The notes under the pieces are model-generated. The model ran no database searches, was not told where the DNA came from, and was given only the letters and a program-made list of their open reading frames with translations. A stretch of DNA of 16,505 bases from a virus. Positions 455-16,505 of the stretch are shown piece after piece (positions within the stretch are counted from its first letter, which is position 1; each line of letters opens with the position of its first letter). A program made the position numbers and the translations under genes. The DNA is taken from IMG/VR virus record IMGVR_UViG_3300045988_177740; one strand, given 5' to 3'.

Positions 455-2395
455 TTAAATAATGTGCATCAAGTAGTTCGCGAGCATTTTTTGAGCTTTT
501 TCGTTTGGATGGTCATCGCTAAGTTTTAATGCTTTATTTTTTAAATTTACAATGTCTGGAGATAAATTCGGAAGAACATTAGCAAATTTACCATTTAATC
601 TTACTGGAATATTTTTGTCTGCTTTCATCGAATAAAATTCGCAACCTTTATAATCAGCAACTTGTTTGAATGCATTTGACCTTTCTTCTGGAAACCAACC
701 GTCCATACACCAGATAATGATTCGGGCGGTCGGGCATTTGCTATAGATTTTATCTATTAGTATATTCATCTGCCCGCAATACGTGTCATTTGTATTATCG
801 TTAAAATTGCCATTCGGAATATTTAAACCATTTAAACCAAATGCAATAAAATAAACATCATAGCCATCAGTGATGTCATTTTCATGCTTGTTTAACCATG
901 TGTTTGGATTACTACCCGGAATACCGTAGTTTACACCATCACAACATCCATATTCATTTAAGAAACTTACATATGATTTTACAGGTGCAACATGTGTAAA
1001 AGAGTCACCGCAAAAACATACTTTTTTTGATATTTTATTTTCTCGTAATGTTCTATGAAACGTTGTAAATTTTCCTAACAATGAATACCTGTAGTAAAAC
1101 GCAGGCGGGTTTTGCGTATTTTCTAATGGCAAACCGATCAGATACTGGAGAACATCAGTATTATTATCCACAACAGGAGTGATACAATAGCAAGACCAAT
1201 AATAGTCTGTTACATTTTCGAGCACCAAACCTGTTAAAGAAGTAGGCTCTACAGTATAACTTCCGATTCTTTTAATGTCATCAATATTGTATTTACTTGA
1301 GCGAAAATGCGAGGTGTAATAGTCTTTAATGTTATGTGAATTTCCCGAGCTTCTATTAAACGTTGTAAATTTTCCTAACAATGAATACCTGTAGTAAAAC
1401 GCAGGCGGGTTTTGCGTATTTTCTAATGGCAAACCGATCAGATACTGGAGAACATCAGTATTATTAGCCACAACAGGAGTGATACAATAGCAAGCCCAAT
1501 AATAGTCTGTTACATTTTCGAGCACCAAACCTTTTAAAGAAGTAGGATCTACAGTATAACTTCCGATTCTTTTAATGTCATCAATATTGTATTTAGTTGA
1601 GCGAAAATGCGAGGTGTAATAGTCTTTAATGTTATTTGAATTTCCCGAGCTTCTATTAAACGTTGTAAATTTTCCTAACAATGAATACCTGTAGTAAAAC
1701 GCAGGCGGGTTTTGCGTATTTTCTAATGGCAAACCGATCAGATACTGGAGAACATCAGTATTATTAGCCACAACAGGAGTGATACAATAGCAAGCCCAAT
1801 AATAGTCTGTTACATTTTCGAGCACCAAACCTGTTAAAGAAGTAGGATCTACAGTATAACTTCCGATGTTTTTAATGTCGTTAATGTTAAATTTTTTGCC
1901 ATAACTATGATTTTCATACGCATTAATTGGTGCATTATATTTCATGCTACTTGCTACAAATTCACTACCATTATAGTAATAAACAAAACCGTCAGATGCT
2001 AAAATGTACAGGGCAGAAGTATCAACCATGCTTTCTTTGCTATTTACAAGGATAGGTTGATTTATTTTCACAAAGTTTTTCAATAATTCGCTGAGCTCTC
2101 CAGTTTTCGACATATTATCCAGTTTACTGTTTATTTCTTCCTGTACATCTAAATTAGTAAAGTACGTATTTATAAAGTTGTATAAATCTTTGTAACTTTT
2201 TACAAGTTCATCCTGCGCATTAAACATTTCTCTTACTGTCTTAAACAGCACAACAAATTTGTTTTCCAGACTCAGCGCACCGTTAAAATCATACGGAATC
2301 CCCCGTACACTTGCCACAACTTCACAAGCCTGCGTAATCATTTGACCGAAATCGGGCAACGTAGGAAAATCTGGAATTGTTGGTTTTTTTGACAT
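455..2395 (-). CDS. Tail fibre / appendage (receptor-binding) protein with three 100-aa tandem repeats and a C-terminal SGNH/GDSL-like esterase domain
   Basis: 646-aa ORF. An AAGGAGG ribosome-binding site sits 7 nt upstream of the ATG. It is the last gene of the structural block, the position of phi29 gp12. The N-terminus has a fibre-like helical segment (LDVQEEINSKLDNMSKTGELSELL). The C-terminus carries VCFCGDSFTH ... FGLNGLN ... SDDHPN. Confidence 0.75.
   Translation of the reverse strand: MSKKPTIPDFPTLPDFGQMITQACEVVASVRGIPYDFNGALSLENKFVVLFKTVREMFNAQDELVKSYKDLYNFINTYFTNLDVQEEINSKLDNMSKTGELSELLKNFVKINQPILVNSKESMVDTSALYILASDGFVYYYNGSEFVASSMKYNAPINAYENHSYGKKFNINDIKNIGSYTVDPTSLTGLVLENVTDYYWACYCITPVVANNTDVLQYLIGLPLENTQNPPAFYYRYSLLGKFTTFNRSSGNSNNIKDYYTSHFRSTKYNIDDIKRIGSYTVDPTSLKGLVLENVTDYYWACYCITPVVANNTDVLQYLIGLPLENTQNPPAFYYRYSLLGKFTTFNRSSGNSHNIKDYYTSHFRSSKYNIDDIKRIGSYTVEPTSLTGLVLENVTDYYWSCYCITPVVDNNTDVLQYLIGLPLENTQNPPAFYYRYSLLGKFTTFHRTLRENKISKKVCFCGDSFTHVAPVKSYVSFLNEYGCCDGVNYGIPGSNPNTWLNKHENDITDGYDVYFIAFGLNGLNIPNGNFNDNTNDTYCGQMNILIDKIYSKCPTARIIIWCMDGWFPEERSNAFKQVADYKGCEFYSMKADKNIPVRLNGKFANVLPNLSPDIVNLKNKALKLSDDHPNEKAQKMLANYLMHII
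1051..1895. repeat. About 2.8 copies of a 300-bp in-frame tandem repeat within the tail fibre gene
   Basis: 1051-1350, 1351-1650 and 1651 to about 1895 align at a period of exactly 300 nt. The first two copies differ at only a few positions. The third copy diverges after about 1867. Confidence 0.95.
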
Positions 2396-9753: not shown

Positions 9754-10893
9754 CTATTTATAAAGATCAATCCCTAGTAACTCAACCGCCATATTCTTGC
9801 TGTCTAGATCGTCAAACCGCAAATATGCTTTGCGGTATGCGTCAACTAGATTTTCAAACAAATAATCATAGTGTTCCAACATAACCGTGTTTTGGGTATG
9901 ATCACCGTCCCGAAAAACCGCGACAAATTTACAAGACGGGTTATAGTTATGCGTAATATAGATGTACCCCTCTTCGTAATACTCATACACTCCATAACTT
10001 TTTCCACTATGCTCGATGGTGAACAGATACCGCGACCGTCCGGTCGGCTTTTGTACAAACACGGCATCATCAATCAACATCTGATCTCCAACACTCATGC
10101 TTTGCATATAGTGTCCGCCGCGGAATGCTTTCAAAGCAGTATTCTCCCACATGGCTTTACTGGCACTGTCATTGTGAGTAAACTCACACACAAAACCGCT
10201 CCCATGCAGCATTTTTGTTTCTTTCTGGTATCTCTTATGGATACCAAAAAATACAAAATAGGGATTGAGCAACGAAATATTATTGGATGACATTACCAGT
10301 TTAAACCATCGGGACTGACTTCCGTTTCCGCGGCTGATCGTCAATAGCAACGATTGCAGTTTTTCAGATTCCCCTTTTACGTATTGTCCGCTTTCCATGC
10401 TGAACTCGTCAAAAAACAAAAAGTAGATATCCCGAAAATACGGAGATAATTTTTTTACACTGTCCATCTTACTTCCAAAACTAAACGCGCATCCGAATGG
10501 CACGCCGTCCAGAAAATACCGCACAACATTTCCGTTTTTGTCCAGATTTTTATAGGTAATCACACTTCCTAATTTAGGATACATTCTTAGCATATCTTCG
10601 TACATTGCCGCCGCTCCCGTCATTTCCCCTTTCGTCCGGAAAATCCATCCGGTCTGCAATCCGTACTCTTTGCACAAGATACAGCTTGCCGCGGCGAACG
10701 CACTTGTCTTTCCGGCGCTACGGTTGGAACACGTAATTGCCACTCCAGCGAAATCCCCGTCCACGTCCGGCTCTGAAAACAACCGAATCGGATTGTAATA
10801 CTGAATCGCTTTCCCGTTATCGTCTACCGCTTCAAATTTCACATTATATTCAGCAAAAAGTTTTTCCCATTGAATATCGTTCCAAAAAATCAT
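9754..10893 (-). CDS. DNA packaging (encapsidation) ATPase, phi29 gp16-like
   Basis: 379 aa. It has a Walker A motif (SNRSAGKTSA) and a Walker B motif (IYFLFFDEF). The size and motif spacing fit gp16-type small-podovirus packaging ATPases. Confidence 0.85.
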   Translation of the reverse strand: MIFWNDIQWEKLFAEYNVKFEAVDDNGKAIQYYNPIRLFSEPDVDGDFAGVAITCSNRSAGKTSAFAAASCILCKEYGLQTGWIFRTKGEMTGAAAMYEDMLRMYPKLGSVITYKNLDKNGNVVRYFLDGVPFGCAFSFGSKMDSVKKLSPYFRDIYFLFFDEFSMESGQYVKGESEKLQSLLLTISRGNGSQSRWFKLVMSSNNISLLNPYFVFFGIHKRYQKETKMLHGSGFVCEFTHNDSASKAMWENTALKAFRGGHYMQSMSVGDQMLIDDAVFVQKPTGRSRYLFTIEHSGKSYGVYEYYEEGYIYITHNYNPSCKFVAVFRDGDHTQNTVMLEHYDYLFENLVDAYRKAYLRFDDLDSKNMAVELLGIDLYK

Positions 10894-10922
10894 TGTTTCA
10901 CGTGAAACATTTTTGTTTCACG
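10894..10922. promoter_or_regulatory. Perfect 16-bp palindrome TGTTTCACGTGAAACA (10894-10909) plus an extra half-site TGTTTCACG (10914-10922), abutting the ATPase start codon
   Basis: Read directly from the sequence. An identical 20-nt element recurs at 14300-14319. The only ribosome-binding site (GGAGGG, 10928-10923) lies 29 nt from the ATPase ATG. Confidence 0.5.
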
Positions 10923-10980
10923 CCCTCCTTTCTTCTTTTTTCCCGCTCCGCGTTACCACGGTTATCTGAATCTCTAACGT

Positions 10981-11043
10981 CCCGCCAGTTCCCCGCCAGC
11001 AAAACCGCAGACAATCTCACGTTTATCGCACGATAATCGCACG
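10981..11043. promoter_or_regulatory. Direct repeats phased at 11 bp: CCCGCCAG twice and ATC(G/T)CACG three times
   Basis: CCCGCCAG occurs at 10981-10988 and 10992-10999. ATCTCACG occurs at 11014-11021, and ATCGCACG at 11025-11032 and 11036-11043. Every spacing is exactly 11 nt. Confidence 0.45.
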
Positions 11044-11088
11044 TTTTGATTGCAGATGGACGGCGGGAAAGGCAGAGCTACGCTGGGT

Positions 11089-11123
11089 ATAAAAAGAGCT
11101 ACGCTGGAAAACGTAGCTCTTTT
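11089..11123 (-). terminator. Rho-independent terminator downstream of the 139-aa gene
   Basis: The minus-strand RNA reads AAAGAGCUACG-UUUUCCAG-CGUAGCUCUUU followed by UUAU. The stem is 11 bp with an 8-nt loop, and the U run reaches 5 when the stem Us are counted. Confidence 0.7.
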
Positions 11124-11141
11124 ACACGTATGGAATGAAGT

Positions 11142-11170
11142 TTTATAATACAAGATATAGTAACAATCAA
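11142..11170 (-). promoter_or_regulatory. Weak candidate promoter just upstream of the 11089-11123 terminator
   Basis: On the minus strand: TTGATT (11170-11165), a 17-nt spacer, then TATAAA (11147-11142). The context is AT-rich, so this could be a chance match. Confidence 0.25.
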
Positions 11171-11235
11171 CTACAGGTAACATAAATACTCAAGTTACCG
11201 TCCGCCAGTCGGGGCGCGTACCCAGTTCATGGTAA

Positions 11236-11655
11236 TTAAGCAAACGGATTAAATTTTTCCGTATCGCCGAATTTGTGTACATTTACCGCGGAAAGGTAAG
11301 CTGTGAATCCCTTGTCGCGGCGGAACTTGCTTTCTCCGATGGAAATGAACAGGTCTACTACTGCGCCTTTACCCAGTTCGGAAACACTGGAAACGGTTTC
11401 GCTCTCTACGCCGTCCTCGTAAAAGTCAACGCGGTAATTGGTCTGCGCTTTCACGTACAAACCAGCTTCGGAGGTTTCCTTTGCAGGAATCCATTTCGCT
11501 TCTGCGGCGGCATCTTCCCCGAACTCCTCGATGATCTTTTCAAAGATTACTTTCTGCTGATCGGCAGAGATAGAAGCGGAAAGAACGCTTTTGCCGTCTT
11601 CCTCTTTTGCGTATTTAACAGTTACGTTGTTTAATTTCATTTTAGCTTTGCTCAT
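11236..11655 (-). CDS. Hypothetical protein, possibly a ssDNA-binding protein (functional analogue of phi29 p5); the function is tentative
   Basis: 139 aa and acidic, with an AAAGGAGA ribosome-binding site. It sits in the replication block and is followed by its own strong terminator, which suggests abundant expression. The C-terminus (FGDTEKFNPFA) is aromatic. No diagnostic motif was recognised. Confidence 0.35.
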   Translation of the reverse strand: MSKAKMKLNNVTVKYAKEEDGKSVLSASISADQQKVIFEKIIEEFGEDAAAEAKWIPAKETSEAGLYVKAQTNYRVDFYEDGVESETVSSVSELGKGAVVDLFISIGESKFRRDKGFTAYLSAVNVHKFGDTEKFNPFA

Positions 11656-12201: not shown

Positions 12202-14361
12202 CTATTCCGGTATCACTCCGTCTTGAGAGTTTACCAACACTTCATAGTATTCATTTGATACTCCTAAGGTATAAGTGGTATCAATAATTCCGATGTTACT
12301 AGCAGTTAAAATTTCTTCCCCGTTTACTTTGATGTAATGTGGTTTCGAGTTGTTGAAACAACTGATCGTACGTCCGACATTTTCCATCCGGCGGCAGAGC
12401 CGGAAATTATTACAGCATTTCAAGTTTTCCGCTCCTAGTTTTTTATTCATACCCGCAACCGTAGATGTAAAACGTACGGGATCTTTGCCAGATTTCGCCG
12501 CTTTTTTATCCCATTCAACGCCGCAATATTTTTTCGCGCCAAGGGTTTTAAATTGGATATACAGAGCATCCATATCCCATACGCCGAGAATGTATCGTTT
12601 TTCGCCTACATCGCAAAACGCAGGAATATCGTTTTCAATCGCACGTTTGGAAAGTAATTTGTTTTTGTCTTCAAATTCTGGTATATGTTCTTCCGGATGT
12701 AAAAATTTGATGCTATCCGTGTCGCAGTAAACAACATCCATTCCAACAACGTCCAGCATATCTTGTAGTTGTTTTCTCGCGTGGGCAGTAACGTAGATTC
12801 CCCACTGATAGTGCAAAAAGCTATTCTTACTTTCATAATACGTGTTCAGTGCTTTTTCCGCATCTGCTTTTTCCCGCGTCCATTCTCCCGTGGTTTGGTT
12901 CATCACCCATTCGTCCTGTAAAAGATCAGTAACACACATACCGAATGTACTGTTTAATTTATTCTTAGATTTCATGTACTCATAGACTTTATCGGGGTTT
13001 CCTTTTAAACGGCTTTTTGCTATAAAAAATGACATCATGGTTTCCCGCATACTGTCCGGTAACTTTCCACGCGCGGCTACGTAGCACTCAGACACGGTAA
13101 AAAAGTCGTATTCATACTGGTTTCTTATGATTTCCAAGTCAATCTCTGTCATGGCGATCTCGCAACAATCTATAGAGAGTACTCGTCCATTATCAATCAC
13201 ATACTCTTTTCCGTGCTTCTGACACTTTGAAAGAGGGATATATGGAACCGGAATGTTTTCTTTAATATGCAAATTATCAAATTGTACCCGCATGATAACG
13301 CAACGACTGCCACATAAGTTATCAAATTGATCTTGAGATGTAATCTCTACAGCCCTAAACGCACTCATGGGATAGTAACCCATTGCTATCTGCGCGGGGT
13401 AGCTGCTGGAAATATCCATGCTTCCCATTACGATTGCGTTTTCCCTTTTTTTCGCGGTGATCGTGTGTCCCGCGTGGATGCGGTTGGCGTGCGTGTTGCC
13501 GCCGCGGAACGCATCTTTGCAAAGACGGTATTGAGACAACGTTAGCGCAAGGTCAGTAAAAACATCGGGATAATAGTTTTTATCCGCTTGCATGGCACGG
13601 CGGAACTCGCGGCGGACGTAGCCAGTTGAAGTAAGGGGGATTTCCGCAAGGTTGTCCTCTTTACGCGCGGCACGGATGCATTCACATAAACCGCGAACAT
13701 CGTTATAGCAGTAACCTTGCTCACTTTCCATAAGTGGTGTGGTTGGTGTACGTAGTTTTTTGTAGTCATACGTATCAACCAATTTATAATGGATTACACC
13801 ATCACTGTTCTCACAGAATTTTGACAGCGACATATTGCTTAAAAAGTAAGAACACCGGAACTCGATACCGTACTTATAAGCGTAACATTTCATCACTTTA
13901 TGTGCGTCACGTGCGAATATTTCATCAAATTCAATGAAATCTTTCATAAATTGAAATTCATACGACAAGTTATGAACGTATACTACAGCACGTTTCGTAT
14001 CGGAAGTTTTCAAATACAGATGCAGTTTTTCGCAAAACGACAAAAACTCGTTCCATGTGCGGCCAAAACACACGGTGTCTTTCATACAAAACTGCCAGTG
14101 ATACAGAAAGGCGGTTCCTTTTACTACTTTTTCACCCGTTTTATTATAGCGTTCATAGTCCAATTTTTCCAACGTGGTTGTTTCAATATCAAACGCCATT
14201 TCCACGTCATAATAAACGATAGGATTTTTCTTTCTTCCACGCTTGCGGCATTCGCGCGCAGTCTGGAAAGATGAAAACGGAAAATCGTCAACGCTATAAA
14301 TTGTTTCACGTGAAACATTCTCTTTTCCGTCTTGCATAACAGGGACTTGTAATTCGTACAT
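12202..14361 (-). CDS. Family-B DNA polymerase of the protein-primed (phi29 gp2) type
   Basis: 719 aa. Exonuclease motifs: Exo I FDIETTT, Exo II VHNLSYEFQF, Exo III YCYNDV. Polymerase motifs: pre-motif A FRGGNTH, motif A MDISSSYPAQ, motif B KNKLNSTFGM, motif C VYCDTDSIKF, and KxY as GAKKY. An AGGTGA ribosome-binding site sits 5 nt upstream of the ATG. Confidence 0.97.
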   Translation of the reverse strand: MYELQVPVMQDGKENVSRETIYSVDDFPFSSFQTARECRKRGRKKNPIVYYDVEMAFDIETTTLEKLDYERYNKTGEKVVKGTAFLYHWQFCMKDTVCFGRTWNEFLSFCEKLHLYLKTSDTKRAVVYVHNLSYEFQFMKDFIEFDEIFARDAHKVMKCYAYKYGIEFRCSYFLSNMSLSKFCENSDGVIHYKLVDTYDYKKLRTPTTPLMESEQGYCYNDVRGLCECIRAARKEDNLAEIPLTSTGYVRREFRRAMQADKNYYPDVFTDLALTLSQYRLCKDAFRGGNTHANRIHAGHTITAKKRENAIVMGSMDISSSYPAQIAMGYYPMSAFRAVEITSQDQFDNLCGSRCVIMRVQFDNLHIKENIPVPYIPLSKCQKHGKEYVIDNGRVLSIDCCEIAMTEIDLEIIRNQYEYDFFTVSECYVAARGKLPDSMRETMMSFFIAKSRLKGNPDKVYEYMKSKNKLNSTFGMCVTDLLQDEWVMNQTTGEWTREKADAEKALNTYYESKNSFLHYQWGIYVTAHARKQLQDMLDVVGMDVVYCDTDSIKFLHPEEHIPEFEDKNKLLSKRAIENDIPAFCDVGEKRYILGVWDMDALYIQFKTLGAKKYCGVEWDKKAAKSGKDPVRFTSTVAGMNKKLGAENLKCCNNFRLCRRMENVGRTISCFNNSKPHYIKVNGEEILTASNIGIIDTTYTLGVSNEYYEVLVNSQDGVIPE
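14302..14317. promoter_or_regulatory. Second copy of the 16-bp palindrome TGTTTCACGTGAAACA, inside codons 15-20 of the polymerase ORF
   Basis: Read directly from the sequence. The 20-nt block 14300-14319 is identical to 10892-10911. Confidence 0.4.
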
Positions 14362-16049: not shown

Positions 16050-16284
16050 ATTTATTCCATTTAATATTACACACATATTCATTCTGCCCATTGTCCGCCA
16101 CCCACGGACACTTTAGCAGACTAAAGTGAGTCCCCTTTTCGGAAGTGTCCGCGACCCGCGGACAAACTGGCGGTTTCGCCCACTTTTCGGGCAAAATGAG
16201 TTAATAAAACAAAAGAATTGTGTGTGGATCGGGAGGAAAACGTGAATAATTGTGGAATTGTATAGACAATTAGACGAGACTAAC

Positions 16285-16313
16285 ACTTTAGTCGGGTAAA
16301 GCGTTTTTGTCAA
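16285..16313 (-). promoter_or_regulatory. Mirror copy of the ITR promoter, reading inward in the same direction as all genes
   Basis: On the minus strand: TTGACA (16313-16308), a 17-nt spacer, then TAAAGT (16290-16285). Confidence 0.4.
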
Positions 16314-16394
16314 GTTGGTAAAATGCATAAAAATTTCGGGCATATGTGTTGTAATAAGTATTAAAAAGTGAACAAATGCAATGAAATAGTTTGC

Positions 16395-16432
16395 AAAAGC
16401 GGTGTCTTTCCCTGGCGGACACCGCTTTTTTT
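16395..16432 (+). terminator. Mirror copy of the ITR terminator hairpin
   Basis: Same hairpin as 74-111. Here the U7 orientation is on the plus strand, facing outward. The inward (minus-strand) orientation has only U4. Confidence 0.35.
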
Positions 16433-16505
16433 GTGCAATGTGCTGTCCGCCGTACGCGGACAAAATTGGGAAAATGTCCGCGTGGGACGGACTATATATA
16501 TGTTT

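Follow-up and report, generated by a model that had tools for sequence, protein, structure and literature searches.

Setting of the repeated element

The DNA considered here, IMG/VR virus record IMGVR_UViG_3300045988_177740, is 16,505 nucleotides long, and "the window" below means this whole stretch. It is the complete, linear, 16.5-kb genome of a phi29-like phage, with inverted terminal repeats (ITRs) at its ends, and the minus strand carries every long open reading frame (ORF). Two genes, those for the protein-primed DNA polymerase and the packaging ATPase, share at their 5' ends an identical 20-mer, ATTGTTTCACGTGAAACATT, built around the perfect 16-bp palindrome TGTTTCACGTGAAACA. The palindrome has the sequence of parS, the chromosomal nucleation site of the partition protein ParB (Spo0J), and the two copies are referred to as parS-1 and parS-2.

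9754 to 10893, minus strand: packaging ATPase gene of the phi29 gp16 family, 379 aa (Pfam PF05894, Podovirus_Gp16, E 9e-28)
10894 to 10909, no strand assigned: parS-1, perfect 16-bp palindrome TGTTTCACGTGAAACA in the 5' leader of the ATPase gene, ending 1 nt before the ATG; 20-mer at 10892 to 10911
12202 to 14361, minus strand: protein-primed family-B DNA polymerase gene, 719 aa (PHROG 1907, DNA polymerase, E 4e-51; PF03175 in homologues)
14302 to 14317, no strand assigned: parS-2, perfect 16-bp palindrome TGTTTCACGTGAAACA within polymerase codons 15 to 20; 20-mer at 14300 to 14319

A preliminary description of the window had reported the 20-mer as occurring twice and nowhere else, each time with the palindrome and at the 5' end of one of these genes, and had called a chance repeat very unlikely. 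All of this is borne out. Only the two copies were found by exact search, with no further match at up to three mismatches on either strand of the whole genome. The chance expectation is 0.01 matches, and the observed number was reached in 0 of 200 dinucleotide-preserving shuffles. The 5' placement holds both here and in most close relatives. The polymerase copy corresponds to codons 15 to 21 (AAT GTT TCA CGT GAA ACA AT-, reading NVSRETI) and sits 43 nt into the reading frame. The gap between the end of the upstream gene and the polymerase ATG is 8 nt, and there is therefore no promoter at that point. The ATPase copy overlaps its ATG (10893 to 10891) by 2 nt. A third half-site, which the preliminary description did not mention, lies near the ATPase copy and is taken up below with the ATPase leader.

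Identity of the core with chromosomal parS

The core matches canonical chromosomal parS at 16 of 16 positions in both copies, and the literature containing this string is all concerned with ParB-parS or close topics (Noc, oriC prediction). The Bacillus subtilis site is given in a review as TGTTNCACGTGAAACA, and the perfect palindrome is given for other species. The same consensus has been used to map near-ori parS clusters in gut bacteria, including the Clostridia Blautia coccoides, Enterocloster clostridioformis, Flavonifractor plautii, and C. innocuum; ParABS homologues were present in all 12 genomes of that study, and in gut bacteria ParB-parS loads SMC and shapes the origin domains.

No ParB or other partition domain was detected in the 20 phage ORFs scanned by Pfam and PHROGs, so the sites can work only with the ParB of the infected cell. 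We regard it as highly probable that both 20-mers are functional parS sites of the host type.

The bases outside the core also follow a pattern. Among 59 distinct sites in phi29-like loci, the phage parS prefers the flanks AA|parS|TT, with A at 76% of the -1 and 69% of the -2 positions compared to a background of 33%, and this preference accounts for three of the four extra bases that are identical between the two 20-mers. Sites with AA and TT on their two sides form a 20-bp palindrome, AATGTTTCACGTGAAACATT, as seen for example in loci L086, L145, L260, and L279.

Conservation among close relatives

Close relatives are represented by 80 loci whose polymerases are 89 to 93% identical to that of the window. 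Both exact sites are present at homologous positions in 40 of the 80 and one of them in a further 24; most of the rest differ by one or two mismatches. The exact 16-mer of parS-1 is kept in 72% of 78 relatives, which places it in the top 2.7% of 16-nt windows, and that of parS-2 in 61% of 79 relatives (top 5.3%), compared to a genome-wide median of 8% and, around parS-2, a local median of 4%. Ranked against the sequence within 1 kb on either side, parS-1 falls in the top 4% and parS-2 in the top 1.5%.

Within the polymerase gene, the conservation follows the nucleotides. The six wobble positions of the site are 93% identical, compared to 65% across all 719 third positions of the gene; runs of six codons equally conserved make up 2.1%, a share that falls to 0.28% once a clade with a replaced segment is excluded. 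The codons flanking the site drift freely while the site stays, and in polymerases 48 to 74% identical the positions of NVSRETI read TQQVECI, GIEECEI, GVKKEIV, and so on, so that the peptide is not conserved. The relatives were checked for the reverse pattern, in which NVSRETI is kept through different codons, and the opposite was found, the DNA being kept while neighboring codons and distant peptides vary. As judged from these alignments, selection acts on the DNA and not on the peptide. The N-terminal extension of the polymerase ahead of Exo I, which the preliminary description had noted as the segment holding the element, is indeed present and about 45 to 55 aa long; since all aligned relatives have it, it is a trait of the family and is not tied to the element.

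Natural variants that lack one or both sites include about 11 loci belonging to a single clade, as well as loci L044 and L078, in which no site is present even at two mismatches. In one clade, polymerase codons 15 to 21 have been replaced by unrelated sequence (alignment rows such as A.C.ACAG..ATA); in other variants the ATPase copy has been lost through a 20-bp deletion between half-site repeats.

parS in distant phi29-like phages and cultured relatives

Nucleotide comparison of the genome with cultured phages gave two short matches only, and therefore protein searches were needed. The closest cultured phages by polymerase are Clostridium phage HM2 (45% identity) and the Amedibacillus phages of the Guelinviridae (39%), while the ATPase has relatives in Clostridium symbiosum phages and, more distantly, in phi29. 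The polymerase family has thousands of metagenomic relatives, and human-gut metagenome contigs of 15.7 to 16.2 kb hold identical polymerase genes; HMP-type samples of the human gut are rich in relatives of the phage.

Perfect parS sites recur far outside the close relatives. Of 18 distant loci, for which polymerase homology was the sole criterion of choice, 8 contain perfect parS, with 19 sites in 227 kb compared to an expected number of about 5e-5. Searching in the other direction, at least 23 phi29-like contigs, recognized by their polymerase or gp16 ATPase, are found among the 120 IMG/VR matches listed for perfect parS, often with 2 to 4 sites. When all perfect palindromes of 12, 14, and 16 nt were counted in 45 loci selected by homology (575 kb in all), the parS core ranked first, in 14 to 15 loci and with 27 to 30 occurrences; the runners-up reached 2 to 5 loci and, at 12 nt, consisted of A and T only.

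The distant phi29-like gut phages carry 1 to 4 perfect sites each, at positions that differ from those in the window: in the gap between the genes for the major capsid protein (MCP) and the tail knob, in the gap between the tail knob and connector genes, near the termini, and in the polymerase gene at nt 485, 1070, and 1421.

The cultured relatives divide by host. A parS with at most one mismatch is present in all seven relatives that infect Firmicutes (HM2, phi29, Nf, AD70P2, CS229P1, CI461P1, and the Enterococcus phage Athos), whereas no parS within two mismatches was found in any of the five that infect Salmonella, Pectobacterium, Enterobacter, Vibrio, or Acinetobacter (Fisher's exact P of about 0.001). 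The combination of parS with no ParB of the phage's own is also seen in phi29, Nf, HM2, CS229P1, and Athos.

Sites at the ATPase gene boundary

In 6 of 18 parS-bearing clades the midpoint of a site lies within 25 nt of the start or stop of the ATPase ORF, compared to 0.7 expected (P of about 3e-5), a figure to be read with the caveats of shared ancestry, crude ORF calls, and the selection of some loci through parS itself. In phi29 (locus L280), the site at 17243 begins 1 nt after the stop of gene 16, which ends at 17242. In the C. symbiosum phage CS229P1 (locus L282), which was not a representative in this test, the distance from the ATPase stop to the start of parS, at 10528, is again 1 nt. 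In one distant clade (L260, L261, and L264), the ATPase ORF itself opens with ATGTTTCACGTGAAACA (MFHVKH...). Among distant relatives the two ends of the ATPase gene, 3' and 5', have parS equally often. The test lends limited support to the idea in the preliminary description that the neighborhood of the ATPase gene matters.

The ATPase leader

In the window the site at the ATPase gene is part of a compact leader, which on the coding strand reads GGAGGG-CGTGAAACA-AAAA-TGTTTCACG-TGAAACA-ATG and contains the following features.

10890 to 10910, minus strand: mini-ORF ATG TTT CAC GTG AAA CAA TGA (MFHVKQ*), arising from parS-1, with a stop codon that overlaps the start codon of the ATPase gene (ATGA)
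10900 to 10923, minus strand: predicted mRNA hairpin with a 10-bp stem and an AAAA loop (minimum free energy -16 kcal/mol, z = -3.1)
10914 to 10922, minus strand: extra parS half-site, TGTTTCACG (coding strand: CGTGAAACA), separated from parS-1 by 4 nt on its upstream side and forming the 5' arm of the predicted hairpin
10923 to 10928, minus strand: ATPase Shine-Dalgarno sequence, GGAGGG, separated from the ATG by 29 nt that include parS-1 and the extra half-site; conserved in relatives

The predicted hairpin pairs the extra half-site with the first half of parS, leaves 6 nt from the base of the stem to the AUG, and sequesters the AUG of the mini-ORF. The relatives are bimodal in this respect: about 55 loci have a Shine-Dalgarno sequence 28 to 31 nt from the ATG together with three half-sites, whereas about 9 loci have a spacing of 9 to 11 nt with one half-site or none, and there are no intermediates. 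The short-spacing relatives differ from the others by a 20-bp deletion between direct half-site repeats, and the extra half-site is intact in about 90% of the relatives with the long configuration.

A spacing of 29 nt that a predicted stem would reduce to 6 nt, within the 5 to 11 nt of an effective Shine-Dalgarno spacing, is the arrangement of a split ribosome-binding site (RBS), and from the folding model we judge the chances that the hairpin acts as one to be about even. The hairpin is probably a compensation for the stretching of this spacing by parS and not the reason for the element. Termination on the mini-ORF followed by reinitiation could be an alternative, coupling-based route to translation of the ATPase.

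The non-coding stretch of about 320 nt upstream of the ATPase gene (10912 to 11235) is more conserved than the flanking coding DNA in 78 relatives and has a folding z of -4.3. It contains a terminator-like hairpin, GAGCTACG-N8-CGTAGCTC followed by T5, as well as direct repeats of CGTGCGAT. No Rfam family (pRNA, riboswitch, or leader) was found in the whole genome at gathering thresholds or in 10800 to 11300 at E of 10 or below. Its function may be that of a packaging RNA or of a regulated leader. A near-consensus sigma-70 promoter on the plus strand at 11121 to 11149 (TTTACA-17-TATAAT, 11 of 12 positions) is opposed to the direction of all genes and could either drive an antisense RNA or be a chance match.

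Comparison with known systems

Phage-borne parS of the host type has been known since 2005 from phi29. According to a passage in PMC2731898 that cites Meijer et al. 2005, phi29 has five parS sites, the segregation of the infecting genome into the prespore involves Spo0J of the host, and Spo0A represses the lytic program of the phage. We find four copies of the B. subtilis variant TGTTCCACGTGAAACA and one weaker site in phi29, and two sites in Nf. Like phi29 and Nf, the phage studied here is a small protein-primed podophage with no ParB of its own, in which several copies of the host chromosomal parS are scattered over genes and gene junctions, and as in phi29 one of them adjoins the ATPase gene. 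It thus has the virion genes and protein-primed module of a phi29-type phage on a linear genome with terminal repeats, and parS with no phage ParB, while Spo0A boxes are not enriched, unlike in phi29. It further differs from phi29 in having two perfect palindromes instead of four to five sites of the TGTTCCACGTGAAACA variant, and from both phi29 and Nf in having all genes on one strand, ITRs of 419 bp, a polymerase nearer to those of HM2 and the Guelinviridae-like phages, and one site within a ribosome-binding region, and it comes from the human gut.

The chromosomal parS of Bacillota and of most bacteria, reportedly the subject of work by Lin & Grossman in 1998 and by Livny et al. in 2007, has the identical 16-bp sequence. 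Chromosomal sites cluster at oriC on a replicon that encodes ParAB, whereas here they lie on a 16.5-kb viral genome in which neither was found. The parABS of phage P1 and the sopAB/parS of N15 are likewise phage systems with centromere-like sites for active partition. In P1 and N15, ParA and ParB are products of the phage itself, and the centromeres have no sequence relationship to host-type parS; in the window the scans revealed no partition protein, and the site is that of the host. A closer parallel in organization is SGI1, which hijacks the parABS of an IncC plasmid (PMC10954446) and is thus a mobile element with a cis site only, its ParB borrowed from another replicon. SGI1 is an integrative element, however, not a virus, and borrows a plasmid system and not a chromosomal one.

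For the ATPase leader the precedent is T4, in which genes 38 and 25 have a split RBS, the Shine-Dalgarno sequence lying 22 and 27 nt from the AUG and a hairpin restoring an effective 5 to 11 nt (PMC3014915). The long spacing of the ATPase gene would be bridged in the same way by an intervening hairpin. It differs in that the spacer is here a predicted protein-binding DNA site and that the putative hairpin reuses one of its half-sites.

Proposed role of the sites and alternatives

We propose that the phage carries parS of the host type and so recruits host ParB for partition or carriage in spores, and that at the ATPase gene a split RBS accommodates the site; we consider this explanation as a whole likely. 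Dimers of host ParB would bind at both sites, form CTP-dependent clamps by closing, and then spread along the 16.5 kb of phage DNA, which would be handled like the origin-proximal part of the host chromosome. With lytic growth delayed, this DNA would be segregated along with the host origins, either to daughter cells or to the forespore, and the phage would persist in a carrier or dormant state, by the route reported for phi29. At the ATPase copy, the third half-site would let the mRNA fold and bring the Shine-Dalgarno sequence back to about 6 nt from the AUG. As to the purpose of the sites in particular, the analysis leans somewhat towards partition or spore carriage.

Several observations weigh against this proposal. 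ParB binding at these sites and its effects in the cell are predictions for this phage. Links to a host are limited to bins of metagenome-assembled genomes (MAGs) and to distant cultured relatives on Clostridium and Amedibacillus, so that a sporulating host is a supposition: the scan of genome contigs gave MAG-binned matches only, at 28 to 44% identity (a Roseburia bin and Clostridia, besides implausible Bacteroidales and archaeon bins), and the only tblastn matches of the endolysin were another gut contig and Bifidobacterium phages, with identities of about 35%. Spo0A boxes (TGTCGAA) are not enriched, with 1 found compared to 2.8 expected, the single box at 2106 to 2112 lying inside a tail gene. 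About 20% of the close relatives have one or both sites lost or damaged, and the function is therefore dispensable; moreover, the conservation statistics come from closely related sequences that are not independent. The relatives that infect Vibrio and Acinetobacter have no parS, although these hosts possess ParABS. Finally, the Enterococcus phage Athos has parS, and Enterococcus does not sporulate, so that spore entrapment is not the sole purpose.

The last point also bears on a live rival, to which we assign a low probability, namely that ParB, and via ParB also SMC, is recruited to titrate or mislocalize the partition and condensin machinery of the host or to compact the replicating phage DNA in lytic growth, and not for the partition of a dormant genome. 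The site in a phage of a non-sporulating host and the lack of Spo0A box enrichment in the window both fit this purpose, as does the loading of SMC and shaping of origin domains by ParB-parS in gut bacteria, and during phage replication parS would be present in hundreds of copies. However, phi29, the sole experimental precedent for a chromosomal parS borne by a phage, points to spore segregation, and one or two sites per genome, frequently lost in nature, suit an accessory persistence trait at least equally.

The preliminary description had suggested an operator for a dimeric regulator of replication and packaging. That the element is the site of a dimeric DNA-binding protein is very probable; a transcription factor of phage or host that co-regulates the polymerase and ATPase genes through it we think very unlikely. 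The copies do lie at the 5' ends of both genes here and in most close relatives, and the association with ATPase ORF boundaries exceeds expectation, but the sequence is that of the universal parS, the polymerase copy is intragenic with the preceding ORF ending only just upstream of the ATG, distant relatives have the site elsewhere and at either end of the ATPase gene, variants with neither copy exist, and Pfam and PHROGs revealed no candidate regulator. A gene-specific operator was accordingly rejected for want of a promoter gap at the polymerase copy and because positions differ in distant relatives. The other early suggestion, an RNA hairpin that controls translation or stability of the two messages, survives in part at the ATPase copy, where the predicted stable fold is read as compensation for the insertion of parS. 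It does not survive at the polymerase copy, where RNA folding is ordinary (z = -0.8). The ATPase hairpin, the bimodal spacing among relatives, and the T4 genes speak for a primary role in RNA. Yet this hairpin uses the extra half-site and only half of the palindrome, and a role in RNA would not require the exact 16-mer, while the identity with parS and the intergenic copies on either strand of distant phages would go unexplained. Such a primary role is highly improbable in our estimation, and an element acting in RNA only was rejected on the polymerase folding, the use of half the palindrome, and the identity with parS.

A binder encoded by the phage, whether an unrecognized ParB-like protein or another DNA-binding protein serving replication, packaging, or partition, could be sought among nine small early ORFs with no detectable family. 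We find it scarcely credible, as no ParB, helix-turn-helix, or partition domain was detected, and the same site occurs in phages with unrelated early genes, including phi29, for which the reported factor is the host Spo0J; the use of the B. subtilis variant TGTTCCACGTGAAACA by phi29 also suggests that the sites track the host. Chance combined with coding constraint has in its favor that one copy lies in coding sequence, and nothing further. It is practically negligible in view of the shuffle statistics, the retention of the 16-mers, the identity at wobble positions, the variable peptide of distant polymerases, and the palindrome ranking, and we take it as refuted by the conservation and recurrence data.

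Recognition of the element as parS turns an anonymous repeat into a testable site of interaction with the host, and the borrowing of the host centromere seen in phi29 would reach beyond the Bacillus phages into a large group of phi29-like phages of the human gut, as yet uncultured. Should daughter cells or spores indeed receive these nominally lytic phages through host ParB, this would explain their persistence in the gut and possible transmission from person to person with spore-forming Clostridia, and a phage-borne parS would be a simple sequence marker of that lifestyle. Points of interest are the spread of the site among gut phages, its preferred AA/TT flanks, its link to the ATPase boundary, and the predicted dual DNA and RNA design of the ATPase leader, which would be a natural split RBS arising from insertion of a protein-binding site.

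A bolder extension, which we hold to be doubtful, is that the placement of parS is non-arbitrary. The site abuts the start or stop codon of the ATPase gene in at least 6 divergent phi29-like clades including phi29, and in the window it may be a dual DNA/RNA element within the RBS. If functional, ParB loading might be coupled to expression of the packaging motor, as a switch sensing the host cell cycle or sporulation and choosing between packaging (lysis) and partition (dormancy). More broadly, small lytic phages of gut Firmicutes might in general persist and be transmitted by borrowing the host centromere, for example from person to person inside spores.

Other features of the genome

The remaining gene products identified by Pfam and PHROGs are those of a phi29-like virion and lysis module: the MCP (Phi29_MCP), connector gp10, tail knob gp9, a tail lysozyme, an endolysin, and a holin, in addition to the gp16 ATPase and the protein-primed family-B polymerase. 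The 379-aa call of the ATPase gene recurs on independent contigs. The termini are as follows.

1 to 419 and 16087 to 16505: inverted terminal repeats, 419 bp, 99% complementary

Each ITR contains four copies of a palindrome of 19 to 23 bp, TGTCCGC-N5-7-GCGGACA, at 12 to 34, 43 to 65, 341 to 363, and 395 to 417, with mirror copies in the opposite repeat. They may be candidate sites for a factor associated with the replication origin or the terminal protein.

Three tandem repeats of 300 nt occupy positions 1051 to 1950, the second and third being 98% and 83% identical to the first, within a 646-aa tail/GDSL-esterase ORF (455 to 2395, minus strand), and they encode a repeated 100-aa module in a probable receptor-binding protein.

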